Shown piece after piece: positions 36,000 through 55,566 of a stretch of DNA of 61,424 nucleotides. Every line of letters begins with the position of its first letter. Positions within the stretch are counted from its first letter, which is position 1. The notes below the pieces were generated by a model. The model saw only the letters and a program-made list of their open reading frames with translations. It was not told the DNA's origin and made no database searches. Location: the IMG/VR virus record IMGVR_UViG_3300028840_003815, positions 1 to 61,424 of that record; one strand, written 5' to 3'. Both the position numbers and the translations under genes were made by a program. Origin of the DNA: a virus. Its lineage: Duplodnaviria > Caudoviricetes.

Positions 36000-36007
36000 G
36001 AAAATAC

Positions 36008-36072: not shown

Positions 36073-36121
36073 TAAAAACCTCACTCGTGAAATCTTTACT
36101 CTTTACGTGAAAGGAGCTTTT

Positions 36122-37224: not shown

Positions 37225-37240
37225 TGTTCTACGTGGAACA
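37225..37240. other. parS-like palindrome 1 (TGTTCTACGTGGAACA)
   Basis: One mismatch to TGTTCCACGTGGAACA. Confidence 0.8.
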
Positions 37241-37309
37241 TTTCAGGGATAGATTTCGGGTAGCTCCCGGAATTGATAAGCCGGTATTCACGAACCGGCT
37301 TCCCTGGAA
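37241..37309 (+). ncRNA. structured RNA element copy 2
   Basis: Identical core to copy 1. Confidence 0.75.
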
Positions 37310-37360
37310 TCCTTCTTATCGTGAATCTCTATAACTCTTTACGTGAAAGGAGTCCAAAAA

Positions 37361-37954
37361 ATGATTGATCTTCTTAAAGAATCGGTAGATAAATTTAATT
37401 CATTCAGACAAGAAAATCCTGAGATAAAAATTGACTTTCAGGGGGTAGATTTACAGGGTATGAATCTCCAGAATGTTGACCTGCAGGGTGCGAATCTCCA
37501 GAATGTTGACCTGCGATATACAGACCTTCAGAATGCGAAGCTCGAAAATGCTGATCTCCGATGTACATCTCTTAGATATGCAGACATTCAGAGGGCAAAC
37601 CTTAGATATGCTAAGCTCTCTGATGCTGACCTTCGTGGTGCTGACCTCAGTCATACTATTCTTCTAAGGGCAGACATTAGAGATGCGGATCTCCGGTATG
37701 TTGATCTCCATAATGCTGATCTCAGTCATGCAGACATCAGGGGAGCCGTTTTAGATTTCTCTTGCATCCCTTTATCCTGCAAAACAACTGGGATAATCGT
37801 TGATGACAGATTTATTGCTCAACAGTTATTTTATTTAACACGGCAAAATACAAAATATTGTTCCGGTGGGGTTCAAGAAGCCATTGAACATATAAAAGAT
37901 ATGGCGGTCTCTGATTTGTTTTGCGAATACCGTAATGATATTTCTCGATTATAA
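37361..37954 (+). CDS. pentapeptide-repeat protein
   Basis: (A/V)DLxx repeats; AAGGAG RBS before ATG 37361. Confidence 0.92.
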   Translation: MIDLLKESVDKFNSFRQENPEIKIDFQGVDLQGMNLQNVDLQGANLQNVDLRYTDLQNAKLENADLRCTSLRYADIQRANLRYAKLSDADLRGADLSHTILLRADIRDADLRYVDLHNADLSHADIRGAVLDFSCIPLSCKTTGIIVDDRFIAQQLFYLTRQNTKYCSGGVQEAIEHIKDMAVSDLFCEYRNDISRL

Positions 37955-37958
37955 AAAT

Positions 37959-37974
37959 TGTTCCACGTAGAACA
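37959..37974. other. parS-like palindrome 2 (TGTTCCACGTAGAACA)
   Basis: Reverse complement of site 1. Confidence 0.8.
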
Positions 37975-38040
37975 TTTCAGGGATAGATTTCGGGTAGCTC
38001 CCGGAATTGATAAGCCGGATTAATGCACCGGCTTCCCTGA
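37975..38040 (+). ncRNA. structured RNA element copy 3 (different loop)
   Basis: Same stems; loop ATTAATGCA. Confidence 0.75.
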
Positions 38041-38106
38041 TATCTCTCACCATGAGGGGTTATGAACTTCATGAGTTGCCAAAAACATTAAGGGGAAATA
38101 TTCATA

Positions 38107-38385
38107 ATGAAATGGTATCAGTGTGATATTATCAAAAAGTCAGGGGATATTAAGTTTTGGTGCAGGTTTATCGCTCATGATGCCCAAGATGCTGAAAAAC
38201 GCATTGAAACACTTTTAAAAAAAACTTTAACTGGGAGTATAAAAAATAAAGCCTACTTGTTTGCGGCTAAAAGATACATTGATGATTTTAGGATTACAGC
38301 CGTACCGGAAAATATTTTGGCAATGTATGACTTAAATAAATCTTCAGATGTGGATTTGTTTTATGTGAAAGGCAAGGAGGGTTAA
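38107..38385 (+). CDS. hypothetical protein
   Basis: AAGGGG RBS. Confidence 0.7.
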   Translation: MKWYQCDIIKKSGDIKFWCRFIAHDAQDAEKRIETLLKKTLTGSIKNKAYLFAAKRYIDDFRITAVPENILAMYDLNKSSDVDLFYVKGKEG

Positions 38386-38392
38386 AAAGTTC

Positions 38393-38517
38393 TTGACATA
38401 TGATACACGTTAGTATAGTATACCAAACATAAGTTTTTTTTGCCAAAATAATTCAACATTGGGTGTGGACTTATTTTGTCGGGGGGCGTTCCATAGGGGA
38501 GCGCTCCCTTTTTTTTG
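38393..38517 (+). ncRNA. candidate small RNA (promoter plus terminator, no ORF)
   Basis: TTGACA-17-TAGTAT, about 90 nt, GC hairpin plus T run. Confidence 0.4.
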
Positions 38518-38541
38518 CTTGACAGAGTTAAAGCTTTAGTA

Positions 38542-39330
38542 TAACTTGACAATGTCATACTAATGGTTTTTCAAAAAGTTGGAATAAAAATAGTTATTAT
38601 CCTAATGGTAAAGAAAAATTTGGTGTTTCATTAAAATATAAATTTTTAGAATATTTGGGTAAGGGGTGGTATCGTCCAGATTTTGCTCCGGTAGACTATT
38701 CAATAACAACACAACATTCTGACATTAAAGATATTATTAACAAGTGGAGAAAAAGATTAGATCGTAAAGTGGCTTTTGCAATATATAAAAATTGGGGATT
38801 TTTTAAAAAATATCAAATTGAAAGCATAACTGTCTTAAAAAACAAAATTGAAACGGGAGAATTACTATGACTATAAAGAATTTGGAATCAAGTATTCCTG
38901 CAAATAATGAAAAAATTATTGAGATATACAAAAAAGTAAAGGCTGGACAACTTGATCATAGTCCTGACTTTCAAAGAAAACTTGTTTGGAAAAAGCAACA
39001 TAAAATTAATTTTATAAAAACTATACTGCTTAATTATCCTTTCCCGGAGATATATAAAGCACCAGGAGATTTGAATGTTGATGATTTAGAATTGACAGAT
39101 TTGATTGTTGATGGCCAGCAAAGAGTAAATGCGATTGTAAATTTTATTGATTCTAAAGATGTTTTCGCCTTACCTAAAACATCTTTAAAATTTACAAATC
39201 TTACCAAAAAAGAAAAAGAAGATTTTCTGAATTATGAAGTTTCTGTACGTTATTTGAAAAATGCTGATAAAGCACAAATAAAAGAAATTTTTCAGCGAAT
39301 AAACAATACAGATATGACATTGTCAAGTTA
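38542..39330. mobile_element. 789-bp cassette bounded by perfect 18-bp inverted repeats
   Basis: taacttgacaatgtcata (38542-38559) / tatgacattgtcaagtta (39313-39330). Confidence 0.6.
38550..38870 (+). pseudogene. apparently 5'-truncated gene fragment
   Basis: Frame is open back to the left inverted repeat with no ATG or RBS; the track uses TTG 38655. Confidence 0.5.
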
Positions 39331-39331
39331 A
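38867..39331 (+). CDS. DUF262 (GmrS, ParB/Srx-fold) domain only, 3'-truncated
   Basis: PDFQR..VW, I.TIL..YP.PEI, IVDGQQR, EIFQRIN; ends inside the right inverted repeat. Confidence 0.88.
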   Translation: MTIKNLESSIPANNEKIIEIYKKVKAGQLDHSPDFQRKLVWKKQHKINFIKTILLNYPFPEIYKAPGDLNVDDLELTDLIVDGQQRVNAIVNFIDSKDVFALPKTSLKFTNLTKKEKEDFLNYEVSVRYLKNADKAQIKEIFQRINNTDMTLSS

Positions 39332-39366
39332 AGTGCTGGAACATATTCCAAAGCTTATAAAATAAT

Positions 39367-39382
39367 TGTTCTACGTGGAACA
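39367..39382. other. parS-like palindrome 3
   Basis: TGTTCTACGTGGAACA. Confidence 0.8.
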
Positions 39383-39404
39383 TTTTTAAAAGGAATAAAG
39401 CTAA

Positions 39405-39594
39405 ATGTGTAAACATATAGAATCAAAAACTTGCTGGTGTAATCCCACTGTTGAAGACTATTCAAAAAAAAAAGAAAGTTAATTTCTGCTGGCATTGTGG
39501 TCGAAAACTTCAAGGAAATCATCGTGTTGAAAAGTTTATAGATGGTGAAATAAGAACACTCCATAAACAATGTGCTAAAAATTGTTCCACGTAG
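39405..39594 (+). pseudogene. small Cys/His-rich gene split at an A10 tract
   Basis: MCKHIESKTCWCNP..., then +1 frame KVNFCWHCGRKL...LHKQCA. Confidence 0.55.
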
Positions 39595-39598
39595 AACA
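39583..39598. other. parS-like palindrome 4
   Basis: TGTTCCACGTAGAACA. Confidence 0.8.
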
Positions 39599-39616
39599 TT
39601 TTTAAAAGGAGTAAAA

Positions 39617-40132
39617 ATGATACTATGTGATTTAGAAATTAAAGAAATGGCTCAAGCCGGTATGATTGAGCCATTCTCTATAAAAAATCTTAATCCCGCA
39701 AGCTACGATCTTACACTTGGGGATAAATTCAGAGTACCGGAATCCGGGGGCTGGTCTGATGAAGTCCATATGCCAGAAGCAGGTATTGATCTTGATGTTT
39801 TCCCCTTTATCCTCGCTCATTCTCTTGAATACCTGAACATGCCTGATAATATAGCAGCTATGCTATATAGTAAAAGCACTGCCGGCCGCAAAGGGATTGA
39901 GCATTCTCACGCCGGATTTATTGATCCAGGATTTCCAGGGCAACTGACTTTTGAAGTTAGTTGCCTATGGCCTTTTAAGCGGATTATAAAACCCGGTAAT
40001 AAATTATTCCAGATTGTATTTTTCAGAATGTCCGGGAAGCCGGAAAAGAATTATATGGAAAAATCTGATTCTCATTATGTAAATCAGTCCGGAGCCACTG
40101 CTAATTATGATAATGGAAGGAGCAGTTTATGA
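39617..40132 (+). CDS. dcd: dCTP deaminase
   Basis: NPASYDLTLG, KST.GR.G, AGFIDPGF.GQLT.E, Y..Q.G. Confidence 0.92.
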   Translation: MILCDLEIKEMAQAGMIEPFSIKNLNPASYDLTLGDKFRVPESGGWSDEVHMPEAGIDLDVFPFILAHSLEYLNMPDNIAAMLYSKSTAGRKGIEHSHAGFIDPGFPGQLTFEVSCLWPFKRIIKPGNKLFQIVFFRMSGKPEKNYMEKSDSHYVNQSGATANYDNGRSSL

Positions 40133-40476
40133 AATTTAGGAATTTAACAGATTGTACTATCGAAGTAGTTAATCATTTGTCCGGTGAAACTGTTTTATTT
40201 ATAGAACCTGAATACATTGGATTGGATGTAATAAAAAAAGCTATCCATGTCGATTCTGTCCATGTAAAAGATATTCCATTTTTCAAAATATACCATAAAG
40301 TTAATGGCTTACCAGAGCCTCAAGCCGATACAATGTTAATTGTACCGTATGATTTTTTTATGTTAGTATCAGATAGGTATGATATTTGTTGCCCAGATAC
40401 ATGGCCTGAAGCACTGAGCGGGGTTCATGGAAATGTGTTTAAGGCTAATGGGTTTCAGGTTCATCATGTCAAATAA
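40129..40476 (+). CDS. conserved phage hypothetical protein
   Basis: NLT..I...GLPEP....LIV......R.D...P. Confidence 0.7.
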   Translation: MKFRNLTDCTIEVVNHLSGETVLFIEPEYIGLDVIKKAIHVDSVHVKDIPFFKIYHKVNGLPEPQADTMLIVPYDFFMLVSDRYDICCPDTWPEALSGVHGNVFKANGFQVHHVK

Positions 40477-40798
40477 TAATATAAAGCCCTCAGTATGTCC
40501 AAAATGCTGGAAAAAAACATTATATAAGTTTTCAAGCAATGATATGTATTGTGATAGTTGTGGCTTTACATGCCCTGAAATAATAGAAATAGACAGAGAT
40601 CGTATTAATTTAATTTCTGAAATGGATGAAACACAAAAAGATTTTTTTGCAATCGGGCTTGCGTTTCATTCTGTATGGATGACAGACAAAGCTTTAAAAC
40701 GAGGCGAAAAAAATGTGCATCCAAGCGATATTAAATGTATGGAAATAATTGTAAGCCTATTGAATAAATACGGATTAAGTCATTCTTTAGGTGGTTAA
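40466..40798 (+). CDS. Zn-ribbon protein
   Basis: CPKC..YCDSCG. Confidence 0.65.
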   Translation: MSNNNIKPSVCPKCWKKTLYKFSSNDMYCDSCGFTCPEIIEIDRDRINLISEMDETQKDFFAIGLAFHSVWMTDKALKRGEKNVHPSDIKCMEIIVSLLNKYGLSHSLGG

Positions 40799-41033
40799 AA
40801 AATGGCGTGACAATAGATTTAATACAGAGTATTATATTTTATATTAAATATAAATGGATTGATATACCACGAAAAAAGGGTGTATTAATCCATTTATAGC
40901 GGATAAAACATGGTGTTTAATCTGGTTCCCCAACCGATTTAAATTCGTTTTTGTCTGCAAAACTTCTTAAAAACCGGGTTTATTCAAGGTGTTGGCGCAC
41001 CTTAGTGAGTCCGGTTTTTTTATTTTTTTATAC

Positions 41034-41174
41034 TTGACATTCAAATATGAATCCTGTATATATATTTACAGTAATTGGGAGCTTTCTGTTTTTATTTCAT
41101 AAAGATTTTTTCCTTTTGAGTGTTAATGTTAAGAAAGGGGGATGGTGCGCAGGGCATCACCCCCTTTTCTTTTT
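41034..41174 (+). ncRNA. candidate small RNA (promoter plus terminator)
   Basis: TTGACA-17-TATATA; pyrimidine-rich anti-RBS-like core; GC hairpin plus T run. Confidence 0.4.
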
Positions 41175-41193
41175 GTAAGGATATTGATAAAAA

Positions 41194-41706
41194 ATGATTT
41201 GCCGTAATTGTGGTGTAGAATCAGAGTTTTATAAGGGTAGACGAGTCTGTAAGGCTTGTGTTCGCAAAAAACATCAAGCATATAGAAGCCGTCCTGATGT
41301 TAAAGAGAGACAAAAAGAATACCATAAAGAGTACAAAAAACGGCCTGAAGTTAGAGAAAAAAGAAAAAAATATATTCAAAAATATAATCAACGCCCTGAA
41401 GTTAAAGAAAAAATAAAAATATATAAAAGAGAATATGAAAAACGCCCTCATGTTCTTAAATATAGGCAGGAATATAGAAACCGGCCTGAAGTTAAAAAGA
41501 GAGCTGCGGAAATGAGAGTTAAACCTAAAAAAGTTAAAATCAAAAAAGACCCCTTTCATTTTAAAAAATATATTGACAATGGCAGAAAATGCAGATTGTG
41601 TAATGAAAACACTCAGGGAAATTGGTTTTATTGTCCTGTATGTTATAAAAAAGTTTGTAAAAAAACTAATTATGCCGAAACTGATAACAATACTGCGGAG
41701 ATTTGA
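41194..41706 (+). CDS. Zn-finger protein with (Y..RPEVKE)n repeats
   Basis: CRNC..CKAC, basic repeats, CRLC..CPVC. Confidence 0.75.
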   Translation: MICRNCGVESEFYKGRRVCKACVRKKHQAYRSRPDVKERQKEYHKEYKKRPEVREKRKKYIQKYNQRPEVKEKIKIYKREYEKRPHVLKYRQEYRNRPEVKKRAAEMRVKPKKVKIKKDPFHFKKYIDNGRKCRLCNENTQGNWFYCPVCYKKVCKKTNYAETDNNTAEI

Positions 41707-41764
41707 CCAGACTTAATAAATAATACTTGACATTTTATTGATTTTTTTGATAGATATAAATATT

Positions 41765-42886
41765 ATGATTGGATATCCTCAAATAACGCTTCCATCCGGG
41801 AGCGAAAATCAAATTTTAGCTTTTAACGGTTCTGGACAATTACAAGTCTTTAGCTTATTTGACGGAGCCGGGAAAATAGACGCTCAATACCTTCCTGATA
41901 TAACAATTACTACAACACATGTGGTTACGAGCGAGGCTGCGCAAATACTTCTTACTGTTCAAGAGGGTGATGTTGCTATAAGAACAGACTTGAATAAGTC
42001 ATATATTGCACTCAATTCTGATAATTTAGATATGGAAGACTGGCAAGAATTATTATCACCATTGGATTCTGTATCTTCTGTTTTCGGAAGAACAGGAAAT
42101 GTAATTGCTGAAAATAATGATTATACGTGGGCGCAGATTAATAAAACAACATCTTCTCTTGCTGATATTACCACAAAAAATCATTCTGATTTATCCGGGA
42201 TAACTACTAATATTCATACTCCTGTGGATGCCGGTACAGCCGATTACAATACTCTTGTATGGGATAATGATAATCAGAAATTTATCCCTAACAATGTTTT
42301 AAGTGTTGATTTTGATAATAAAAAAATAAAGCTGAAATATTCTGATAGCATTTATACTGACATATTCACTGATAGCGATGGTTATTCTTATATTGAGCCT
42401 CTTGGAGGGGAATTATTTTTAAAATCAGATAATACAGCTCTTGGGCATAAATTATTAAATATTATAGGGCCGAGACCGGCTATTTATCAGGAAGTTCAGC
42501 GCAGTGCCGGAGGATTCGCTTTTTATACAAATCAGCTTTATGCTAAAAATACAAATACTTTATTAACGGCGAAAATGGCAGAAATTGGGGTATACGGAGA
42601 TGTACAATCTGGAGAGAACCCGCCGTCATTAACTTATTTTTATATTGCGACTCAAACAGAAGATTATTCCAATGCGTCATTTAAAATTTATTCAGACTAT
42701 TTTAATTTAAATAAAAATTTAGGCGTTGGAATGTCTAATTTCGCTAATGGGCAAAAAGTAGTAGGGATTGGTAACGGAACAGCGCCCACCGGAACGCCTT
42801 CCGGAGGAGGTCTGTTATATGTTGAAGCCGGTGCATTAAAATATAAAGGCTCATCTGGAACTATAACAACAATTGGGGTAGCATAG
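41765..42886 (+). CDS. tail-fibre-like virion protein
   Basis: GKI...[22 protein letters not shown]...DY; C-terminal [18 protein letters not shown]. Confidence 0.7.
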
Positions 42887-43123
42887 ATGATTGATATTGT
42901 TGGATTTATAATTAGTCAAGACCCTGTTGCAAGCATGACAGCGGCACAAAAACAAGCAATATTAGACAGGTTTTGCCGGGCAAGAGGATATGTTGAGGAA
43001 AGCGGGCAAACTAAAAAAGAATTTATGAATCAAGACATTTGTCAATATATAAAAACCATGTTCGATGCTGACGCAAAAAAAGAAGCCACAAGAGGCTTAA
43101 TATATGATACTTTGGAGTTTTAA
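42887..43123 (+). CDS. small protein following the fibre gene (chaperone-like)
   Basis: Position; ORF. Confidence 0.55.
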   Translation: MIDIVGFIISQDPVASMTAAQKQAILDRFCRARGYVEESGQTKKEFMNQDICQYIKTMFDADAKKEATRGLIYDTLEF

Positions 43124-43126
43124 TAT

Positions 43127-43261
43127 ATGGAATTAACAAAAGAAGAAATTAATTTTTTATATAATCTATTACAGTCTCCTATCCCCGCAAGTGCAGATGG
43201 GCATAAACTCATAGCTGATTTATACGAAAAATTGAAAAAGGTAGCCAATGACAACAAATAA
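43127..43261 (+). CDS. 44-aa protein (not in ORF track)
   Basis: GGAG RBS; MELTKEEINFLYNLL. Confidence 0.55.
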   Translation: MELTKEEINFLYNLLQSPIPASADGHKLIADLYEKLKKVANDNK

Positions 43262-44312
43262 CGGCTATGCAAATTTAGGGGATACAATTCGTTTTATAGC
43301 AGTATTCCCGGATTCAACAGGGGCATTTCAAACGGGATTAAGCCCGACAATATCTGTAAAGCTATTGACAGGGGTATCGTTACTTGTAACCGGTGCTGCA
43401 ATGACTGAAGATAGCAATTTGCCGGGAGTCTATTATTATGAGTATACCCCTCCCTCTGCTGGAATATATATAAGCAAAGCCATTACTGGAACACTTCACG
43501 CTATTCCATACATGATTATCGGCGATGGGCTTGGAGCGATTGAGGCAACAAGTCAGAATATTTTATCAGATACAGCTAAGCTTGACATTGCAGTAAGTAC
43601 ACGAGCGAGCGCTGCGGATGTTTGGACATATGGAACACGGACTTTATCAAGTTTTGGTTCTCTAATTTCTGATATATGGAATTATGTAAGCCGGACACTG
43701 ACTACATTCGGATTTACAGTAACAACAGATACAGCAAGTCGGGATGCCAGCAAAGCGGATATAACAAACCTTGCTACAAGCGCAGAAATATCAAATTTGA
43801 ATAATTTAAGTGCGCAACAGGTATGGGAATATGTAACTCGTGAATTGACATCGGCGGGGGCAGGGGGAGCGACTGCACAAGAAGTATGGGAATATGCAAC
43901 CCGTGAATTAACATCAGCAGCAGGGATAACTGAAACTCAATTCCATGATTATCTACAATCATATCCTGATAGCCTTGATCCTGCAGATACCCCTGCGATA
44001 CCTCTCCCCCCTGAAAATACAGCAGTAGTTTTGATTTATAAATATTGCAGAAACAAAGATGATTCAATACTTGCAAGTGCAACTCCGTCATGTCAACTGT
44101 TAGAATATACAACTGCGGATGGAAAAGCTTATTATGTTAATAAAGAAGCTATGTCATTTAACCCTGAGACAGGTTTAGCGTCAATACTTGTGCCTCCCAA
44201 TGCTTATATAAGAGTAAAGATTCCTGAGATAGATATGGATATTATAGGCTATTCCGGGGCTGGTGGCACGTCTCTTGACGCTGATTTGCTTTATACGGAA
44301 AGGCAAGTTTAA
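43248..44312 (+). CDS. putative virion protein with VW.Y.TR.LT repeats
   Basis: Four ADVWTYGTRTLS / QEVWEYATRELT-type repeats; TGLSPTI..MTE....GVY.Y. Confidence 0.65.
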   Translation: MTTNNGYANLGDTIRFIAVFPDSTGAFQTGLSPTISVKLLTGVSLLVTGAAMTEDSNLPGVYYYEYTPPSAGIYISKAITGTLHAIPYMIIGDGLGAIEATSQNILSDTAKLDIAVSTRASAADVWTYGTRTLSSFGSLISDIWNYVSRTLTTFGFTVTTDTASRDASKADITNLATSAEISNLNNLSAQQVWEYVTRELTSAGAGGATAQEVWEYATRELTSAAGITETQFHDYLQSYPDSLDPADTPAIPLPPENTAVVLIYKYCRNKDDSILASATPSCQLLEYTTADGKAYYVNKEAMSFNPETGLASILVPPNAYIRVKIPEIDMDIIGYSGAGGTSLDADLLYTERQV

Positions 44313-44636
44313 ATGAATCATAACGATATAGAAAATTTGTTTCAAGAACACCCAGATGTTAAATTTTTTGATTTTGTGGGTGAATGCCATGATTGCGGTA
44401 AAGATACAACTGTAACAATTGAGAGGCTGATAGATGGGTTTAAAATTTCAGGCGGGGCTTTGTATACAAAAAACATTAAATGCCAAAAATGCTATGAATT
44501 AGAGCCTGCTTTAAAGCAAAAATGTGAAATATACAGCAGAGTAGTTGGGTATATGCGACCCGTGCAAAGCTGGAATAATGGCAAACAACAGGAGTTTGAA
44601 AAGCGAAAAAAATTCGATGGGGATGTAAATGCTTAG
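44313..44636 (+). CDS. stand-alone NrdD C-terminal (glycyl-radical loop) Zn-ribbon protein
   Basis: CHDC..CQKC; CEIYSRVVGYMRPV..WNNGKQ.EF..R. Confidence 0.85.
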   Translation: MNHNDIENLFQEHPDVKFFDFVGECHDCGKDTTVTIERLIDGFKISGGALYTKNIKCQKCYELEPALKQKCEIYSRVVGYMRPVQSWNNGKQQEFEKRKKFDGDVNA

Positions 44637-45396
44637 AAGACTTGGAAACAAAAAGAAAATATTACCGCATTTGCTTCCTTTATTCCCGGAATGCAAAACT
44701 TTTATTGATATGTTCATGGGAACAGGGTCCGTATCCTTTGCAATGATAAAGCGCTGTAATTATGTATTTGCAAATGATATTGAGAATGAAATATTTAATC
44801 TGTATCAGGTACTTAAAAATGATAAAGATGAATTGATTAAACAGCTTCAGATTATGCCTGTTCATAATGGATTGTTTCAGCATTGGAGGCATAATAAAGA
44901 ATCTGAAGCGGTTATGAAGGCAGTCAGGTTTTTGTTTTTAAGTAATTTTGGGTATATGGGTGTATCAGAAGCGCTTCGTTTTGGCATGGTGAAATCTAAA
45001 AAAATCTTACTCAATAATATTGAAGAAGTTTTTAGGAAAATCCAGAATGTTCAGTTTTTGAATTATGATTTCAGAGAAGTTTTAAAGAAAATAGAAATAA
45101 AGAATATTCAAAACGCTTTCCTATACTGCGACCCGCCGTATTTAAACACTACATCAAATTATAATTCAGAATGGAAATTGCAGGATACTGAAGACTTATT
45201 CCAGATATGTATGGATTCCGGCTTGCGTTTTGCCATTTCTGAATTTGAGAATCCTATCATTGTTGATATGGCTAAATCTTCCGGCTTAAAAGTGAATCAT
45301 GTTATTGAGCGTAAATCTTTAAGGAATCGTAATAATGAAATTTTAATAACTAATTATTCAACAGCAAAACAAAGATTATTATTTTATGGAACTTAA
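44629..45396 (+). CDS. DNA adenine methyltransferase (D12/Dam-like)
   Basis: GNK, DMFMGTGSV, ND, YCDPPY, EILITNY. Confidence 0.93.
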   Translation: MLRRLGNKKKILPHLLPLFPECKTFIDMFMGTGSVSFAMIKRCNYVFANDIENEIFNLYQVLKNDKDELIKQLQIMPVHNGLFQHWRHNKESEAVMKAVRFLFLSNFGYMGVSEALRFGMVKSKKILLNNIEEVFRKIQNVQFLNYDFREVLKKIEIKNIQNAFLYCDPPYLNTTSNYNSEWKLQDTEDLFQICMDSGLRFAISEFENPIIVDMAKSSGLKVNHVIERKSLRNRNNEILITNYSTAKQRLLFYGT

Positions 45397-45721
45397 ACAT
45401 TTTATATTCTCATTAGTATTAATTCCTGTATCTGTTGCATTTTTTAAAAAAGAAATAGGGGATTTCATTACAGCATTTTCAATCTACCGGAACAGGCGCT
45501 TTGATGAAGATAGAGACCCAAACACCCCGGACACATGCCAGTTATTAAATCCAGCCAAAGGCAAATGGACAACTGTTATTATTGAAAAATATGTGTTTAG
45601 TCTCAATAAAAATAAAAGCGGTGTTTATGTATTGCATCCCTGTAAAAACAATAAACACGCTCGTGAGATTTTCAGATTTTCTGACTGGGATAAAATAAGA
45701 AAAAGGGAATTACCAAAATAG
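45386..45721 (+). CDS. hypothetical protein with N-terminal TM helix
   Basis: FIFSLVLIPVSVAFF. Confidence 0.65.
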   Translation: MELKHFIFSLVLIPVSVAFFKKEIGDFITAFSIYRNRRFDEDRDPNTPDTCQLLNPAKGKWTTVIIEKYVFSLNKNKSGVYVLHPCKNNKHAREIFRFSDWDKIRKRELPK

Positions 45722-45722
45722 T

Positions 45723-46022: not shown

Positions 46023-46136
46023 AATTTCAGATATTCAAGAGTACCCAGGCAATTATAATCAGCACCCGGAATATTGTGATATAATAATTAAACGCTTTGA
46101 AGATTATGCCGGAATTAAGGCAGAAAAGATATAATT

Positions 46137-47970: not shown

Positions 47971-47971
47971 T

Positions 47972-48283
47972 ATGAATAAGGTTTTGAATGATAAAACTAT
48001 CAGGTTATGTGGACAAGATATTGAAATAGTATGTAATGACCCAAAAGAATGGGCCAATGGAGGCATGGGTCAATGTTCTGAAAAGCAGTGCAAAATTTTA
48101 GTTCATTCTGCAATGGTAAAATCTGCAATAGATTCAACAATTTTACATGAAATAGTTCATCTGATACTTAATTTTAATGGATTCCATAATGAATCAGCCA
48201 ATGAGCAACTTGTATCAGTGTTAGGCAATTCATTTCTTGCATTAATAAGAGATAATCCAGAGTTTATCAAGGATTTGATATGA
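47972..48283 (+). CDS. HExxH metallopeptidase-like protein
   Basis: STILHEIVH...E..V..L......LIRDNP. Confidence 0.75.
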   Translation: MNKVLNDKTIRLCGQDIEIVCNDPKEWANGGMGQCSEKQCKILVHSAMVKSAIDSTILHEIVHLILNFNGFHNESANEQLVSVLGNSFLALIRDNPEFIKDLI

Positions 48284-49701
48284 ATAAAGAACAACTTTTA
48301 GCAACAGATTCTTATTATGATAGTCATATTGACACTTGGCAATATTTACAGGCTGCGTATGATGGTGCGAAAGCCCTTGTTGAATATGGGATATTGGAAG
48401 GATTTAAAGAGCCTGAACAGTATAAAAAGAACGGCGCTGTGTATGGATATGAATACACAAGCCGGATAAATAAAATATTAACTGGCTTTATCGCAAATTC
48501 AAAATTTATAAACGATTATGGCAAACTTTCAGATGACGAAATGTTTCAAAACTTTATGCAGGATTGCGATTTATACGGAACTGATTTTAATCTTTGGTTC
48601 AATGAACGCCGGGAAGTAGTTTCTTATATGGGGCATATCGGAATAGTAGTTGACATGCCTGTTGAACCAACGGGAGAAGGCAATCTTCAGGCTCAAAAAG
48701 ATTTAGGGATTTATCCTTATTTATCGAGCTATGACCCTGTTAATATTTTGGAAATGCAGATAAGCAGAAATCCGCAAACAAATAGACCCTTTTTTAGTAA
48801 AGTAAAATTGAGGGAATATAATCCTGATAGAGTAATTATTTTAACACCGGAAAAAATAGAAAAATATTCAATTCCCATTGAAGATGATGAAGAAGCGGAA
48901 CAGTTAAATGCCGGGAATGATATTAATAAATTGGGTGTTATCCCTTTTTTCCTTTTTATCAATGACAAAAAGCCCGGAACTCTGGAAACAAAATCAAGTG
49001 TCAGGGGTATCGCAGATATAGACGTGTCTCTTATAAAGGATGGATTAAAATCTGAAAAAGTTTTGTTTAATGCTGCATTCCCGGCGCTGGTAATGGCTGC
49101 TGATAGGGATGACCCAACCCTTAGTGAGCAGACAATGGAAAAGGGCGTGAATCAGCTTTTAACGGAAACTCCTGAAACAAAAGGCATTCATAGATGGATT
49201 TCTTCAGAGGCTTGGAGTGCAATACAGCCCATTTTAGCCTCAACAGATGATAAGCGGCGTGAAATTTACTTAATGGCTAATCTGGGGGCGATTCTGCAAT
49301 CAACAAGCAATGAAGCCAGGAGCGGTGAGAGTTTAAAACAGTCATTCAGATATTTAGAGGGAAGCTTGGCACGGATGGTTTCTAATGAGTTAGAGGCAAG
49401 AAGAAATGTTTTCAGGTATTGGTTATTATGGTTAAATCGGCTTGATGAATTTCAAGAAATATCCATAGGACATGATGGGGATTTCGATATTGAGAGCATG
49501 ATTTCTTCTATGGACGATATTCTTGTTGAGCAGTCATTACTGCAAGCCTCCCCAACTGCTCAAAAAGAATTATCTAAAAAGATTGTAAACATTGGGACTT
49601 TAAAGACTTTGGATTTGTCTACAATATCAATTATTAATGATGAAATTGACAATTTTAAAATTGGCCTGGATGAGAATATCCAAAACGAAACCTCTCAATA
49701 A
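48280..49701 (+). CDS. portal protein
   Basis: Size and position after terL; VVDMP, N.LG.IP, ARSGES. Confidence 0.85.
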   Translation: MNKEQLLATDSYYDSHIDTWQYLQAAYDGAKALVEYGILEGFKEPEQYKKNGAVYGYEYTSRINKILTGFIANSKFINDYGKLSDDEMFQNFMQDCDLYGTDFNLWFNERREVVSYMGHIGIVVDMPVEPTGEGNLQAQKDLGIYPYLSSYDPVNILEMQISRNPQTNRPFFSKVKLREYNPDRVIILTPEKIEKYSIPIEDDEEAEQLNAGNDINKLGVIPFFLFINDKKPGTLETKSSVRGIADIDVSLIKDGLKSEKVLFNAAFPALVMAADRDDPTLSEQTMEKGVNQLLTETPETKGIHRWISSEAWSAIQPILASTDDKRREIYLMANLGAILQSTSNEARSGESLKQSFRYLEGSLARMVSNELEARRNVFRYWLLWLNRLDEFQEISIGHDGDFDIESMISSMDDILVEQSLLQASPTAQKELSKKIVNIGTLKTLDLSTISIINDEIDNFKIGLDENIQNETSQ

Positions 49702-49957
49702 TGCTTGTTCTTACTAAAGCTTCTGCAATTTCAGAAGCTTTTAAAATCTCAAATCTTGGTAGACACATTTTTTTATGACAGCCAGTTTTTAAATCTTTCT
49801 GTTTTGAAAATGATTTTAAAAGTTGTGTTCTGAATGTAAACCCCGCTTTCCTGCCTTTTTTTCCGGCTTGAGCCAAACAGATTAAGCAATCTGCTTTTTT
49901 GGGTACAAACGGATTAATAAGTGGGAGTCTTATCGCCTGTTTCTCTAAAAGTGTCAT
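49655..49957 (-). CDS. hypothetical protein (moron-like)
   Basis: AAGGAG RBS and upstream TTGACA; overlaps the portal end. Confidence 0.45.
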   Translation of the reverse strand: MTLLEKQAIRLPLINPFVPKKADCLICLAQAGKKGRKAGFTFRTQLLKSFSKQKDLKTGCHKKMCLPRFEILKASEIAEALVRTSIIERFRFGYSHPGQF

Positions 49958-50104
49958 ATTTTCTCCTTTGATAATACATGTTTTGGCAAATGTATATTTG
50001 TCAAAGAAAACTTGTTTTCAGGATTTTCTTTGACATTTTTGGTTATGGCTATATCAAACCAATGTTTTACCCTATCTCTGTTTGGTACGGTACAATTTGA
50101 ATCA

Positions 50105-50575
50105 TCATGAATTGTCATCATGCCTCCTTATTTCAGTTATAGCTATACCAGACCAACTACTTACGCTATCTATATCTTTTGTGTACATGTCGGAAAGTAT
50201 TGATATAGATTTGTCTATGCTAAAACCAACCCTTAATAATAATTCTACATCCTCTGCAACCTGTTTAACAGGTAAACGAGTTTGAGAAGCCAAAGTTTTG
50301 ATTTTATCAATTATTTGTGTAATTTCATCCCTAACTGCCTCAGTATTCCGCATCTGGTCATCAAAATCTGTAACCGGTTCAATCTCAAAAATAAATCGCT
50401 TATCTGCCTGATTATTTTTCTCTGGAAAAGATATATTCTTTTCAAAGATTAAATTTTTTAAAGGTGCTGGTTCAAACCTTTCAAAGAGATTGTTAAAAAC
50501 ATAACCTGTTGCAAAAATCTTTATTTTTATTTCTTTTTGATCTTTATCTAATTCAATCTGAAAATTATTACTCAT
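50105..50575 (-). CDS. hypothetical protein (moron-like)
   Basis: AAGGAG RBS before ATG 50575. Confidence 0.65.
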   Translation of the reverse strand: MSNNFQIELDKDQKEIKIKIFATGYVFNNLFERFEPAPLKNLIFEKNISFPEKNNQADKRFIFEIEPVTDFDDQMRNTEAVRDEITQIIDKIKTLASQTRLPVKQVAEDVELLLRVGFSIDKSISILSDMYTKDIDSVSSWSGIAITEIRRHDDNS

Positions 50576-50735
50576 ACTTTCTCCTTTCTTTATAATTATT
50601 ACCAAAAAAATATAATTAAGTCAATAAAAAGCTTGACATGGTATTTTATTGTATAGTACACTTTACACATTGTACTAATACACTTTAATTTAAAAAGGCG
50701 TGATGCCTAACACACTTTTAAAAAGGGAGGGCGAG

Positions 50736-51545
50736 ATGCCCTGGAATTTTGATGACAACGGAAATTTTGTAAAGGATGAGTCGGGTAATCCCGTCTGGAT
50801 AGACGAAACCGACAAAACAGAAAAAGCTGTAAATCCTGAAGCTTATTTCAAGAAAATTTCTGAATTAAATAAAGAGTCAATGAACCACAGGCTTAAAGCC
50901 AAAGAAGTACAGGAAGCTTTTGAACAATTCAAAACGCAATATAAAGACCTTGACGACCCGGAACAAGCCTTGAAAGCCCTTGAAACTGTTAAGAATCTGA
51001 AAGATGGGGATTTTTTGAAGGCAGACCAGGTTGACGCTCTGAAAGAAAAAATCCGCCGTGAGTTTGCGGAATCTTACGAGTCTAAAATAAAAGAGACTTC
51101 AGAGACGTATAAATCTCAAGTTGAAAAATATAAAAAGAAATCTGACACTCTTGAATATGAAATTGAGCAGGGGATGAAAGAGCGTGCTATCGCAAATTCT
51201 TTGCAGTCAGGCGTTTTGAAATCAAAAACAACCCTGGGAAACCTTCGTGCCGGAATGGGATATTTTGGCGACAGGTTTAAAAGAGACCCTGAAACCGGTA
51301 AAATGGTCGGGTATCACTGGAACTCTGACAGAAAGATTATTTCTACAAATACAGAAAATGCAGGCGAACCGGCTGACATGGAAACATGTTTAAAAGTGCT
51401 GTATGAAACAGACACATTTAAAGACGGGATTTCAAAAGAAATTCCCGGCGGTGCTGGCAGTACAGGAGGACACGGAACGCCTACAAAAGAGGGAGCCGTT
51501 TCAACTGAGGAGTGGATAAGCGGACTCGGCTTTGACGGTTCTTAA
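50736..51545 (+). CDS. capsid scaffolding protein
   Basis: G.PVWID, KI.ELN.ES..HR, coiled coil, C-terminal GGAGS.GG; precedes the major capsid gene. Confidence 0.8.
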   Translation: MPWNFDDNGNFVKDESGNPVWIDETDKTEKAVNPEAYFKKISELNKESMNHRLKAKEVQEAFEQFKTQYKDLDDPEQALKALETVKNLKDGDFLKADQVDALKEKIRREFAESYESKIKETSETYKSQVEKYKKKSDTLEYEIEQGMKERAIANSLQSGVLKSKTTLGNLRAGMGYFGDRFKRDPETGKMVGYHWNSDRKIISTNTENAGEPADMETCLKVLYETDTFKDGISKEIPGGAGSTGGHGTPTKEGAVSTEEWISGLGFDGS

Positions 51546-51556
51546 TAGGAAAAAAT

Positions 51557-52459
51557 ATGGCAACATTACCAGAACTTTCTAATTTATACGCAAAAAAGCA
51601 GCCTCATCAGGTTGATTATTTAACAGAAAATGCACCGCTTTTAGCGATGTTTCCTTTTGAAAAAGCATCGCACGGGCTTTGGAATGCTTATGAAGAAATA
51701 AAAGATGTTAAAGGAGCATCTTTTGTCGAGATGGATGCTCCCCTTCCCACTGTTTCTGCGGAGTCAGAATTGAAACAGTTTAGTTTGCAGGTTATGGGGG
51801 GGCAAATCGAAGTAGGGGAAGATAAAGCGAAAATGTTTGGCGGTGCTGCAAAGTATTTTGCAACTAAAATGCCAGCCGTACTGAGAAAATCCGGTCAAAG
51901 TGCTGAAAGTGCTATTTTACACGATACAATCCGGGCGTATGCTATTGCAACTGGGAATGTGATTGAACCAGCGGACGCCGCAGGTGATGCAAACTACACA
52001 ATTTTATGCGTAAGATTTGTATCAGGAGAAACGACAGGACTTTACAGCCCGGATGGATTCAAAAACGGAGCGACTCTTGACGCTATGGCTCTGAATAGCG
52101 GGGCTTTGTATAAAAACGAAGATGGTATTAATGTTTACGGAATGAGGCTTAAAGGGTATTTTGGCTTTCAGATAGCCAACCCGAAAACTGTATCAGCAAT
52201 TGTCAATGTTAAGAAAACAAAACAGCCCACAGCAGATCAGCTGGATGAACTTATTGAAATGGCGAGGGGAACATCCGGTTCTACTTATATAATGTGTCAT
52301 CCAGCGGTCAAAAGCATGTTGTATAAGCTGAAAAATGCTAAAATGACAACAGTTCCGAATGATAAAAATATCAATAACATGATTGAGATGTGGAATGACA
52401 TCCCCATTTTGACTTCATACAACTTTGCAAACGGCACTGAAGTGGATGTGGCTATCTAA
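51557..52459 (+). CDS. major capsid protein
   Basis: 300 aa after the scaffold; L.E..P.L...PF, GG.I.V..D. Confidence 0.85.
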   Translation: MATLPELSNLYAKKQPHQVDYLTENAPLLAMFPFEKASHGLWNAYEEIKDVKGASFVEMDAPLPTVSAESELKQFSLQVMGGQIEVGEDKAKMFGGAAKYFATKMPAVLRKSGQSAESAILHDTIRAYAIATGNVIEPADAAGDANYTILCVRFVSGETTGLYSPDGFKNGATLDAMALNSGALYKNEDGINVYGMRLKGYFGFQIANPKTVSAIVNVKKTKQPTADQLDELIEMARGTSGSTYIMCHPAVKSMLYKLKNAKMTTVPNDKNINNMIEMWNDIPILTSYNFANGTEVDVAI

Positions 52460-52471
52460 GGAGTTTTTATT

Positions 52472-52882
52472 ATGTATAATCATACTGTTAAGGATTATGA
52501 CGGTTATCTTGCAAAAGATCAGACAGTGCCTCAAAATGATACAGCAGACGGGAACGGCGGAGGGTTAAAACTTTCCGGGACTATGGGAGGTATTGAAGTC
52601 GTTGCAGTCGTTGGCTCTGTAAAGCTTGATCTGGCAGACACAAAAGTTATGACTATCAAACTTCAGCAAAGCTCTGATGACGGTGATGCTGATGCGTATA
52701 CAGACTTGCATACATTGTATACAGTTACAGCAGCCGGTGCTACTTCAGTAGCTATCGGAACAGAATTAGGACGTTTTGTAATCCCCTCCAATGCTGAGAC
52801 GTATATAAAAGCAACTATTACAAATGATGATATAGCCGCAACCGGGAAAGTGGAAATTTATCCGCATTACCTGCCGAGATAA
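52472..52882 (+). CDS. capsid cement/decoration protein
   Basis: Beta-rich, follows the capsid gene; LQ.S.D.G..D.Y. Confidence 0.65.
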   Translation: MYNHTVKDYDGYLAKDQTVPQNDTADGNGGGLKLSGTMGGIEVVAVVGSVKLDLADTKVMTIKLQQSSDDGDADAYTDLHTLYTVTAAGATSVAIGTELGRFVIPSNAETYIKATITNDDIAATGKVEIYPHYLPR

Positions 52883-52884
52883 TC

Positions 52885-53493
52885 ATGAGATATTGTAATG
52901 ATTCCGATATAGAAAAAATAAGAGAGTCAGCATTGTCAAATTTGACAATTGACTCTTTACAGCCGGAAGATTTTCAAAAAATGGCCGGGCAGAATATCGA
53001 AATGGATTTAGTTTCATTATGGTATTCAGGAACAGACCCATTTAACGCCCGGCTCTTACCCTATTCTTTTGATTACGATTATAAACAAAGAGTTTCAGTT
53101 GTGTCGATAGGAGAACGAGTTGATAAAAAAGGAATTATTTATGAAAAAATAAATTCAGATTTATCAATAAATTATCTTACTGATACAGACTTTACAGATA
53201 CGGATAACTGGAAAAAAATTGAATGTACTTTTCCGGCATTATTCCGGGACTTGGCTGCATATCAAACTTTATTTTTAATATATCGTTATCAGGCAGGGGA
53301 TTCCGAAACGGAAAACACTTTTGAACGGCAAAGGGATTATTTTTTAGAAGCATATCGTAATGAGTTAGCCAGAATACTTGAAATCGGAATTGATTATGAT
53401 CTGGATGAATCCGGGGTTATCGATACTGATAATGAAAAACGAATAATTTCTAATAAGGTACGCCCTGCATTGCAGAGCGTAACGGTTTGGTAA
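52885..53493 (+). CDS. head-tail adaptor
   Basis: MRYC..SDI; Y...Y..EL......DYD.D.SG. Confidence 0.6.
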   Translation: MRYCNDSDIEKIRESALSNLTIDSLQPEDFQKMAGQNIEMDLVSLWYSGTDPFNARLLPYSFDYDYKQRVSVVSIGERVDKKGIIYEKINSDLSINYLTDTDFTDTDNWKKIECTFPALFRDLAAYQTLFLIYRYQAGDSETENTFERQRDYFLEAYRNELARILEIGIDYDLDESGVIDTDNEKRIISNKVRPALQSVTVW

Positions 53494-53510
53494 AAAAGGA
53501 GGATTTAAAA

Positions 53511-53795
53511 ATGACTAAAAAAACATTGCATAATTCAACAGTATCGGCGGCAAAGGACAATGTGAAAGATATGGAAGTTGTAGGTAACGGTGATATGTTT
53601 CGGCTTCTCTGTAAAGCCAGTTCAAAAACAGAGGGCTGGATGAAATCTACAAAAGCTTGTGAAATACCTGGTGTGGGCTGTGTTGTTCAAGTAACAACTC
53701 AACAGGGGGAAAATGTTGCCGAGGCGGTTACTTTTGTTCCGGGGGTAACAATTTATGCTGATAAAAATAATGGCAGAAAACTTGTAAGGTTTTAA
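53511..53795 (+). CDS. conserved phage hypothetical protein (inserted)
   Basis: GGAGG RBS; WMKSTKA..GC.VQVTTQQ..AEA..FVPGV. Confidence 0.75.
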   Translation: MTKKTLHNSTVSAAKDNVKDMEVVGNGDMFRLLCKASSKTEGWMKSTKACEIPGVGCVVQVTTQQGENVAEAVTFVPGVTIYADKNNGRKLVRF

Positions 53796-53931
53796 AACAA
53801 TTGCAGAAATTAATGATATATTTCAAGCTACTGAAGATAAGATTGACAGCTTATTAAAACAAACGATGCAAATATCGTTAAGTCTAACAAGGTACGCTCT
53901 GCAATGCAGAGCGTAACGGTTTGGTGAAAAA
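53786..53931 (+). repeat. degenerate duplicate of 54211-54310 fused to a duplicate of 53449-53497
   Basis: Direct sequence comparison; ATG changed to ATT and a 1-nt deletion. Confidence 0.9.
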
Positions 53932-53932
53932 A

Positions 53933-54220
53933 ATGGGAATTGATTTGAAAACAGGTAGTAAAGAAGAAGTAAGAAGCCGGTTGCTTGATTGGCTTGATAA
54001 GGTTCTGAATCCTGTCAATAAAGATTTTGTTCGGATAACAGAGGATGCTTTTACTTATCGGGTTGAGTATTCAAAAAAACCTAAAATTGAAGCTGATGAT
54101 ATTAGATCAATTATAAAAAATACATCTTCTGAAACACCTATTCGGGTTTCTTATTTTGAAACTGATGAAGGCACGGTTGAAGTCTTGCATATAGAAAAAC
54201 CGGGAACCACAAGGCTTTAA
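53933..54220 (+). CDS. hypothetical protein (inserted)
   Basis: ORF between the duplicated flanks. Confidence 0.6.
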   Translation: MGIDLKTGSKEEVRSRLLDWLDKVLNPVNKDFVRITEDAFTYRVEYSKKPKIEADDIRSIIKNTSSETPIRVSYFETDEGTVEVLHIEKPGTTRL

Positions 54221-54224
54221 AACA

Positions 54225-55124
54225 ATGGCAGAAATCAATGACATTTTTCAAGCTACTGAAGATAAAATTGACAGCTTATTAAAAACAAACGATGCAAATA
54301 TCGTTAAGTCAATAAAAAAGCTTGAAAAGAATATTCTAAATCTTTATCAGGCGGAATACCCAAAGGGGAAAGCTAAATTTAAGATTGCTCAAGCTACAAA
54401 AGTTCATAAGGGAATGATAAGGCTTATGAACACTGAATATAATACGGCGATGCAGTCAATTACTAATGAATATTCAAAAGTCATTTCTGCCATTCAAGCG
54501 GAGTTTGCAGCACTTGAAGTTCCGGTAAGCTTTACCAATGTTGATTCAAAGATTTTTTCAGAATTACAAACAACTGCTTATAATTCCTTTAATCAATTGG
54601 GAAATAAAGCATTAAACGAATTATCGCAAAGTTTATATAACGGTGTGGCATTAGGTTCTGACTTTGCGTCTCTTGTAGGCGAAATGAAGGGCGCTCTTAT
54701 AGGGCTTGAGACGGTTACAGGCACGTCTTTAGCGTCTTATGCCTCAAGATATGCACATGATAGCTTAATGTCTTATTATTCGACTGTTCAGAAGCGTACC
54801 GCAAAAAAAGCCGGATTAAACTATTTCTTATATATGGGGAATATCCAGTTTAATACAAGACCGTTTTGTGCTGCCCGTGCTGGATTGGTTTTTTCAGAAT
54901 CTCAAATCGACTCCTGGAATAATATGAGTTGGCGAGGTCAATCCGGTGATGTTTGGACAAATCGGGGTGGTTTCAGATGCAGGCATTCATTTCATGCTGT
55001 TGATCCGGAATGGATCAAAGAGGGCAAGATTGAAGTTCAGTCTATTTTTGATGAAAAGCCAGACTTGATGACAGCTAAAAATGCTGCTGCTGTTGAAAAG
55101 GAAAAGGCAAGGATGTATGGCTAA
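54225..55124 (+). CDS. minor capsid / head morphogenesis protein (MuF/SPP1 gp7-like)
   Basis: Y.G.....TRPFC..R.G, GG..CRH. Confidence 0.8.
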   Translation: MAEINDIFQATEDKIDSLLKTNDANIVKSIKKLEKNILNLYQAEYPKGKAKFKIAQATKVHKGMIRLMNTEYNTAMQSITNEYSKVISAIQAEFAALEVPVSFTNVDSKIFSELQTTAYNSFNQLGNKALNELSQSLYNGVALGSDFASLVGEMKGALIGLETVTGTSLASYASRYAHDSLMSYYSTVQKRTAKKAGLNYFLYMGNIQFNTRPFCAARAGLVFSESQIDSWNNMSWRGQSGDVWTNRGGFRCRHSFHAVDPEWIKEGKIEVQSIFDEKPDLMTAKNAAAVEKEKARMYG

Positions 55125-55548
55125 ACCTGTAAAAATCAAGGGGCTTGATGAATTATTTAAAAAGCTTGACCCGATAAACATTTTTGATTCAGAGCGTACT
55201 TTGTCAAAAATGGCAGCATATGGGAAAACCAAAATACTTTCCAGAACATCTTCTGGAAAAGACTATTTAAACAGACCATTTAAGCCATATACTGAAGCAT
55301 ATAAGCAGACCCGTTCAAAGCTTGGTTTGCCAAGTAAAAAACCTGATTTATTTAAAACAGGCAGGATGCTTGGCAGTTTATCTTTTTATCTTGAAAAAGA
55401 TGAAGCTCATTTATTCTTTTTGAATCCACAAGAAAGTCTTAAAGCCTATGTAAATAACAAAATAAGGAATTTCTTTGAATTTAATGATAAAGATGAAAAA
55501 GGAATGCTGCGTATTGCTGAAACTGATATAAAAAAGGCTTTGAAATAA
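55117..55548 (+). CDS. neck / tail-completion protein
   Basis: I..RT..GKD....F..Y...Y, DL..TG.ML, R.FF. Confidence 0.7.
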   Translation: MAKPVKIKGLDELFKKLDPINIFDSERTLSKMAAYGKTKILSRTSSGKDYLNRPFKPYTEAYKQTRSKLGLPSKKPDLFKTGRMLGSLSFYLEKDEAHLFFLNPQESLKAYVNNKIRNFFEFNDKDEKGMLRIAETDIKKALK

Positions 55549-55550
55549 AA

Positions 55551-55566
55551 TGTTCTACGTGGAACA
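55551..55566. other. parS-like palindrome 5
   Basis: TGTTCTACGTGGAACA, intergenic. Confidence 0.8.

Follow-up and report, generated by a model that had tools for sequence, protein, structure and literature searches.

Five parS-like palindromes at gene junctions of a sediment phage genome as possible sites for the ParB of its host

Results

Five near-palindromic words of 16 bases lie between genes of the viral record IMGVR_UViG_3300028840_003815 (Duplodnaviria; Caudoviricetes), which was analysed here over its full length of 61,424 nucleotides (the window). The words are related to parS, the site bound by the chromosome partition protein ParB. A reading made from the letters of this DNA (hereafter the sequence-only reading) had listed five copies, and an exact search for TGTTCTACGTGGAACA or its reverse complement recovers these and no others, against a mean of 0.02 copies in shuffled sequence; none of 100 shuffles matches the observed count. 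With up to three mismatches allowed, only one further, weak match appears, at 59033. The 8-base half-site occurs 11 times genome-wide, and ten of these occurrences are within the five sites.

Site 1 (37225-37240, + orientation) begins 1 nucleotide past the stop of the open reading frame (ORF) at 36840-37223, and site 2 (37959-37974, reverse complement) 4 nucleotides past the stop of a pentapeptide-repeat gene; each is followed directly by a copy of a structured leader, so that about 100-130 nucleotides of leader separate it from the next gene. Site 3 (39367-39382, +) lies 35 nucleotides past the stop of a DUF262 gene and 22 nucleotides before the ATG of a small ORF encoding a Zn-ribbon-like protein. 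Site 4 (39583-39598, reverse complement), 216 bp from site 3, holds the stop of this small, uncalled ORF and ends 18 nucleotides before the ATG of a dCTP deaminase gene (39617). Site 5 (55551-55566, +) is isolated in the structural module, 2 nucleotides past the stop of ORF 55081-55548 and 21 nucleotides before an ATG at 55588. The orientations thus split 3:2, all on one transcribed arm, and the leftward arm has no copy.

All five sites occupy short spacers between genes, as the sequence-only reading had proposed. By crude gene calls, 7.2% of 16-mer positions are fully intergenic, and a five-of-five intergenic placement would therefore arise by chance with a probability of about 2e-6. The flanks are directional, with TTTCAGGG opening the sequence after sites 1 and 2 and TTTTTAAAAGGA following sites 3 and 4. 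Contigs from two DNA sequencing runs contain no variants at the sites; part of the region has no cover in one of the runs, and this was not used as evidence.

Each copy has a single mismatch to the parS consensus cited in the sequence-only reading, and this mismatch lies in the CACGTG core. The sites match 15 of the 16 positions of the perfect palindrome TGTTCCACGTGGAACA, and one half of each is a perfect GTTCCAC. According to the available part of PMC4368675, TGTTCCACGTGGAACA is the perfect parS2/parS3 of Pseudomonas aeruginosa, and the available part of PMC7022226 tabulates near-identical words for Myxococcus xanthus and Pseudomonas putida. Membership of the parS family is supported both by this match and by other viral contigs, in which the same word (the T-variant) co-occurs with the perfect form and replaces it.

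The position of the mismatch is best considered together with the word usage of the genome. Palindromic hexamers are frequently missing (26 of 64, compared with 170 of 4032 non-palindromic hexamers), and 16 of the 24 palindromic hexamers with four G/C are absent. CACGTG does not occur at all (expected 6.6 from composition and 2.9 from a Markov model), nor does TACGTA (expected 20.8 and 4.9, respectively). The tetramer ACGT is found 49 times versus 203 expected (0.24), and five of these 49 are the centres of the sites. Other tetramers also deviate: CTAG occurs three times versus 203 expected and CGCG five times versus 64, while CCGG is four-fold over-represented (253 versus 64), and ten GCCGG...CCGGC hairpins are located mostly at gene ends.

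Every perfect parS holds CACGTG, which is a restriction site (Eco72I, used in PMC4368675 according to its available text). A C-to-T change in the core on either strand produces exactly the two observed forms and creates no TACGTA. Because this change destroys CACGTG on whichever strand it occurs, in a genome that avoids 6-bp palindromes, a one-sided mismatch in either orientation is accounted for. The sequence-only reading had noted that the mismatch alternates while the flanks stay directional. The directional flanks hold up, but the alternation as a directional signal does not, given the avoidance of CACGTG; the flipping mismatch is most likely that of a restriction-proofed palindrome. In records with the T-variant only, CACGTG occurs once in 197 kb (none in the window, G010, G012 and G017; one in G023), and the 189 kb of records with a perfect site contain CACGTG 17 times outside the sites, with G025 alone contributing 11. 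This association between the T-variant and CACGTG depletion is suggestive, short of proof.

The sequence-only reading had recognised no ParA, ParB or integrase, and searches of the complete genome agree. A Pfam scan of 107 ORFs found no partition or integration genes. Six-frame searches with hidden Markov models (E<=10) gave no matches for ParB_N (PF02195), HTH_ParB (PF17762), KorB (PF08535), AAA_31 (PF13614), CbiA (PF01656), Phage_integrase or Resolvase; as a control, the families were detected in 10-14 of 14 known genomes. A self-contained ParABS or KorB-type module would include its own ParB-family protein and usually a ParA ATPase, and neither was detected in this genome. The ParB_N proteins of other site-bearing records have no relative in this genome.

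One gene beside the sites deserved separate attention. A protein consisting only of a DUF262/GmrSD_N domain (38867..39331, + strand, 154 amino acids, DGQQR motif, Pfam E 9.5e-20) is encoded by a gene that ends 35 nucleotides before site 3. We take GmrSD_N/DUF262 to be a member of the ParB/Srx superfamily, and on this assumed placement the protein is the sole ParB/Srx-superfamily domain in the genome; it has no helix-turn-helix (HTH), and its structure search gave no match to any solved structure. We rejected it as the protein that reads the sites. None of the 15 other viral records with sites has a member of the family, and there is no space in the protein for a DNA-binding domain, so its adjacency to site 3 appears incidental and it probably does not read the sites.

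The exact 16-mer was found in at least 119 stretches of IMG/VR, many of the matches lying within coding sequence, and 80 stretches that were examined have one match each. From these matches, 15 loci with AT-rich, apparently non-coding flanks were picked by hand, and 14 of the corresponding records were examined. G013 has one T-variant and three perfect sites, and G015 has one T-variant, one perfect site and one site with a single mismatch. In G014, a T-variant and a perfect site are 26 nucleotides apart, and G017 has two T-variants 18 nucleotides apart. Each of the remaining ten records has just one copy, accompanied in one case by a further weak site. The phages of G014 and G017 are relatives, with TerL proteins that are 73% identical, and in both the two sites are located in the spacer between TerL and portal genes, just before the portal ribosome-binding site. 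The rest of this spacer has diverged, and the 16-mers differ only at positions 6 and 11, with one homologous site flipped. In this lineage, which is other than that of the phage studied here, the T-variant and canonical parS replace each other at a given locus.

A scan for words 10-40 nucleotides apart, made without hand-picking, returned 23 viral contigs, of which 20 are all-perfect, two all-T-variant and one mixed. These contigs (L337-L358 and L085) have two or three parS words each. In L350 the word forms part of an extended hairpin that precedes a T run, and in L344, L353 and L354 it is inside a tandem repeat unit. A scan of metagenomes for the word with its flanks gave at least 120 loci; among the matches listed there are 122 perfect parS words and ten variants, and none of these loci is related to this phage.

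Six site-bearing records were fetched in full and compared with the window. They share with it only an endolysin (G010), or SSB, an NTP pyrophosphohydrolase and a 102-amino-acid protein of the structural module (G012), and no DNA-binding regulator is common to the window and the six records. G012 (L324-L325, 32.6 kb) is the nearest, mosaic relative seen; it has one T-variant and no CACGTG, and its SSB, NTP pyrophosphohydrolase and 102-amino-acid protein are 63%, 39% and 54% identical to those of the window.

A 290-bp spacer between the primase and helicase genes (33041-33330) resembles a replication origin. Of the 16 copies of an 8-bp iteron (TGTTACCT/AGGTAACA) in the genome, 13 are in this spacer, some in each orientation, along with a 98-nucleotide inverted repeat, 85% complementary, that flanks an AT-rich core. 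Sites 1-4 are 3.9-6.3 kb from this spacer, in line with the clustering near a putative origin that had been noted earlier; four of the five sites are thus close to what we infer to be the origin. The cumulative GC-skew minimum near 30 kb marks the strand switch rather than this spacer.

The leader that follows sites 1 and 2 is present in three copies. Copy 1 (35971..36072, + strand) precedes the KilA-N gene and has a consensus sigma-70-type promoter at 35971-35999 and its three-way junction at 36011-36072. Copy 2 (37241..37305, +) directly follows site 1, ahead of the pentapeptide gene, and has its junction at 37244-37305; copy 3 (37975..38038, +) directly follows site 2, ahead of the gene at 38107, with its junction at 37978-38038. 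The leader opens with a three-way-junction core of about 62 nucleotides (about -35 kcal/mol, z -3.1 to -3.5), and the second hairpin loop is the only part that differs among the copies. Further downstream, copies 1 and 2 have a hairpin (CTCTTT...AAAGGAG) that is able to occlude the ribosome-binding site. The leader might act as a control element, either in the manner of a riboswitch or by binding a protein. No Rfam family reached its gathering score in the window, nothing meaningful was found at E<=10 around the leaders, and a 19-mer from the leader has no matches in IMG/VR.

Several other features are interspersed with the sites. The gene between sites 1 and 2 (37343-37954) encodes a pentapeptide-repeat protein (Pfam E 1.8e-40) with weak, sub-cut-off likeness to Qnr/MfpA-type families, and the protein may be a DNA mimic. 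The non-coding region 38385-38655 has a promoter (TTGACA-17-TAGTAT, 38393-38421) and a strong terminator (38481-38509; 12 pairs, then a T run), with a second TTGACA just past it, and is a candidate for a small RNA gene of about 80 nucleotides amid the site cluster. The Cys-rich, Zn-ribbon-like frame between sites 3 and 4 (39405-39595) falls into two parts, with a shift of frame at ten consecutive A (39464-39473); the TAG of the second part is inside site 4, and no length variant of the A run was seen in contigs of the two runs. Structure look-ups of ORFs 36840 and 38107 gave weak leads only.

The genome is siphovirus-like, assembled as a circle, and comes from marine sediment. The record has direct terminal repeats and a completeness rating of 100%, and because its first and last 144 bases are identical, the genome corresponds to a circle of 61,280 bp; the tape-measure gene spans the record ends. 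The phage DNA is present in one sediment and one seawater metagenome run, and no RNA run was listed as containing it. G+C content is 36% and the coding share 91.5% by crude gene calls. The rightward arm extends from 30.2 to 61.4 kb and continues to about 5 kb. It encodes a Cro-like HTH protein, a Toprim primase, a RecD2-like helicase, SSB, a KilA-N protein, the pentapeptide-repeat protein, the DUF262-only protein, a dCTP deaminase and a Dam-type methyltransferase, and the genes for terminase, portal, capsid and tail are also on this arm. The leftward arm encodes ThyX, an Amidase_3 endolysin, an exonuclease and many proteins of no assigned function, as well as a 228-amino-acid protein with a PAS sensor domain (11883-12566). 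Consensus promoters of the sigma-70 type and strong ribosome-binding sites of the AGGAG type serve the early genes. DNA-binding-type proteins identified by Pfam are KilA-N, Rha, ORF6N/Ros-MucR and HTH_26, an NCBIfam scan added no regulator to these, and no tRNA was found in the window.

A further gene (44313-44636) encodes a stand-alone 107-amino-acid copy of the C-terminal glycyl-radical region of NrdD, the anaerobic ribonucleotide reductase, which could be a "spare part" protein. This NrdD piece hints at an anaerobic host, and the host of the phage is probably an anaerobic sediment bacterium.

We also surveyed sequences related to individual genes of the phage. A profile of the primase matched six viral and 59 genomic loci at 24-44% identity, only one of them with a parS-like word. 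Of the two viral records that were compared in full, G003 shares the primase alone, and G002 shares the primase, SSB and a fragment. TerL is 47% identical to that of Roseobacter phages, and the portal and helicase have scattered weak matches. In five genomes of the lineages to which the primase relatives belong, a perfect TGTTTCACGTGAAACA was found in three, only a site with one mismatch in one, and none in one. Ordinary parS words in four of five such genomes are compatible with a reading by the host, and are not diagnostic of it.

Discussion

We propose that the five palindromes are ParB-type parS sites read by the ParB of the host, a reading suggested by the sequence to which we assign a probability somewhat above even (about 0.55). 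The sites are read as double-stranded DNA and not as RNA, since their RNA hairpins are weak and their orientations split 3:2 on one transcribed strand. Recognition of a near-palindrome whichever way round it lies implies that the reader is a symmetric dimer. Because the word is also found in phage lineages that have no regulator in common with this one, the simplest candidate for the reader is a conserved host protein, and the word itself points to ParB.

Binding by the host protein, clamp loading and purpose are inferred, and we envisage them as follows. One C-to-T change in the core would remove CACGTG and retain a perfect GTTCCAC half, giving a "restriction-proofed" parS. Host ParB (Spo0J-type) would nucleate at all five sites, four of them near the putative origin, and then load and slide as a clamp dependent on cytidine triphosphate (CTP), so that replicating, non-integrated phage DNA would be marked as a partition complex. 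Host ParA and SMC might position or compact this complex or pass it to daughter cells, in a carrier or episomal state that would be the analogue of spore entrapment of phage phi29. The purpose may be such inheritance, positioning, SMC loading or local silencing; segregation, positioning and repression of neighbouring genes had been put forward in the sequence-only reading. A more specific version, in which the genome is a phage-plasmid-like element without ParA and ParB that, without integrating, persists as an episome in slow-growing anaerobic sediment bacteria through host ParB at origin-proximal parS, with the core edited at a tolerated position to escape CACGTG-type restriction, seems doubtful as a whole.

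Published work on P. aeruginosa, in the parts of the reports available (PMC4368675, PMC7022226, PMC10419367), lends plausibility to recognition of an altered site. There, ParB binds all ten parS variants, and binds sites with one intact arm better than sites with both arms changed. Lone GTTCCAC half-sites are also bound, and the intergenic parS3 and parS4 repress adjacent genes, again according to the available text of these three reports.

A number of observations weigh against this proposal. The changed base falls in the CACGTG core, and in P. aeruginosa parS5, which has the same T and one more change, is the weakest site; the available part of PMC4368675 underlines how much the core matters. 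In G013 and G015 the perfect sites persist in records otherwise free of CACGTG, so avoidance does not always force the edit. Each of the five sites fits precisely into the gap from a stop codon to the following ribosome-binding site or leader, a stop-to-start placement that is characteristic of expression control and that a centromere would not require. The placement alone may be neutral, as a 16-bp insert in a dense genome fits only in spacers. In leader copies 2 and 3, the palindrome occupies the place of the promoter and ends exactly at the leader, and this substitution is a real point in favour of a transcriptional role. Some phages do pair such words with a ParB-like protein of their own: a ParB_N protein is encoded in two of the 14 picked records (G019 and G020) and in G002, while none was found in the five records of one separate check. 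A very divergent phage-encoded reader may exist among the approximately 60 unannotated ORFs. Close relatives in which the sites could be compared were not found either by blastn of 36.8-40.2 kb against GenBank phages or by searches with helicase peptides of IMG/VR and the metagenome collection. The nearest relatives of the primase (35-41% identity) are spread over Desulfobulbaceae, other Desulfobacterota and Magnetococcales.

The strongest alternative, which we regard as unlikely but serious, is that a dimeric regulator encoded by the phage uses the sites as operators and gates read-through or initiation in the manner of a roadblock, the likeness to parS being coincidental. Candidates are the KilA-N protein (36107-36787), the 127-amino-acid protein at 36840-37223 and the Cro-like HTH protein (30196-30441). 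The intergenic positions suit this explanation, with four sites starting 1-35 nucleotides past a stop and three ending 18-22 nucleotides before an ATG, as do the exchange of promoter for palindrome ahead of the shared leader at sites 1 and 2 and the several DNA-binding-type proteins that the phage encodes. The 36840-37223 protein has a weak structural likeness to AntA/Bro-N (TM-score 0.41-0.47, for a model with a confidence, pLDDT, of 0.56), which is a lead only. On the other hand, we estimate that a random palindromic operator would match parS at 15 of 16 positions by chance with a probability of about 1 in 1,000-10,000, and the same word and its perfect form are also found in phages that have no regulator in common with this one. 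The early control region (29.7-30.2 kb) is also without any copy.

It is improbable that the palindromes are promoter or transcription-start elements for an unrecognised phage transcription factor, with middle or late transcripts starting immediately after the palindrome, either on the first leader base or some 20 nucleotides ahead of the ATG. The geometry of the leaders speaks for such a role: the promoter of copy 1 (TTGACA, 17 nucleotides, TATAAA) ends 8 nucleotides before the leader, and the palindrome abuts it in copies 2 and 3. Sites 3-5 are followed by short T-rich 5' regions with a ribosome-binding site. However, no sigma-70-type promoter was found at the sites, consensus promoters being elsewhere (35971-35999 and 38393-38421); there is no -35/-10 pair at a fixed distance, and promoter-like matches are no commoner than in shuffles. 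Pfam and NCBIfam scans found no sigma factor or RNA polymerase, and the core flips 3:2, whereas a promoter should be directional. The map would also be odd, with five sites, two of them 216 bp apart, and none on the leftward arm.

Recombination or cassette junctions, at which the sites would be seams for accessory genes such as those for the pentapeptide protein and the small Zn-ribbon ORF, are less credible still. Sites 1/2 and 3/4 do bracket single accessory genes, with duplicated flanks of 61 or more and 12 nucleotides, respectively, and in one contig 37245 and 39367 are linked through 26 intervening letters of other sequence. This joint has 21 letters on its shorter side, which is too short to trust. 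No recombinase, integrase or homing endonuclease was detected in Pfam and six-frame scans, site 5 brackets nothing, and both the parS likeness and the recurrence in unrelated phages would be left unexplained. Least probable of all, and very improbable, is that the sites act as RNA, as a weak terminator, processing site or inter-cistron stabiliser, because in spite of their inter-cistron position and the T run after sites 3 and 4 (and only these), the hairpins have little stability (-3.5 to -6.5 kcal/mol, z -0.4 to -2.9; 3-59 of 200 shuffles fold as well), a C-A mismatch replaces a G-U pair on the transcribed strand in two of the five copies, the loop letters are invariant and a terminator scan did not call the sites.

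If the sites are indeed read by host ParB, the closest known case is that of phi29 and Nf, virulent Bacillus phages. The available part of PMC2731898, citing Meijer et al. 2005, describes five parS sites in phi29 and implicates the host Spo0J in moving the genome into the prespore. Like these phages, the genome studied here has several host-type ParB-binding words and no partition genes of its own, and by analogy might use the host protein in a similar way. Unlike phi29, a 19-kb protein-primed podovirus, it is an unrelated, 61-kb circularly assembled siphovirus-like genome from sediment. Its copies are all identical and core-edited, four of them are beside an iteron-bearing origin-like spacer, and no link to sporulation is apparent. 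In our literature search, phage use of a host chromosome-partition protein was documented experimentally only for the phi29 family, no other case was found, and the T-variant word was not found in any paper.

Other partition systems offer partial parallels. The sites resemble chromosomal parS of P. aeruginosa in 15 of 16 bases, in the perfect GTTCCAC half and in clustering near the origin, and natural variants with one or two mismatches are still bound there (available text of PMC4368675 and PMC7022226). They differ from chromosomal parS in being on a phage with no cognate ParB gene on the same replicon, and from the perfect P. aeruginosa site in the core mismatch, which lowers affinity in that organism according to the part of the literature available. 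As with the KorB operators of the IncP-1 plasmid RK2, several ParB-family palindromes are spread across a mobile genome, some by gene starts and with a possible regulatory effect, but RK2 encodes its own ParB-family protein, and here six-frame searches found none.

The linear plasmid-prophage N15 has its own SopA/SopB and dispersed centromere sites near expression signals, which are not of the chromosomal parS type. As in N15, the putative centromere repeats here are scattered in a phage genome rather than gathered in one block. Stoperators of cluster A mycobacteriophages are asymmetric sites oriented with transcription and served by a phage repressor. The sites described here are near-palindromic and split 3:2 on one arm, and no such repressor was identified in the Pfam and NCBIfam scans.

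The explanatory idea that is new here is the restriction-proofing of the parS core. As every perfect parS holds a CACGTG site, phages that avoid palindromes would carry a one-letter core variant, which is a testable rule, and the same rule predicts which changes in parS are tolerated by ParB. Core-variant parS might then serve as a sequence signature for phages that persist without integration. If the episomal version of this proposal is true, the toggling at positions 6 and 11 in phages of unrelated lineages would record a general trade-off between centromere strength and avoidance of restriction. Together, this genome and the 23 viral contigs with tandem pairs suggest that the habit of carrying parS is widespread among uncultured phages of unrelated lineages.

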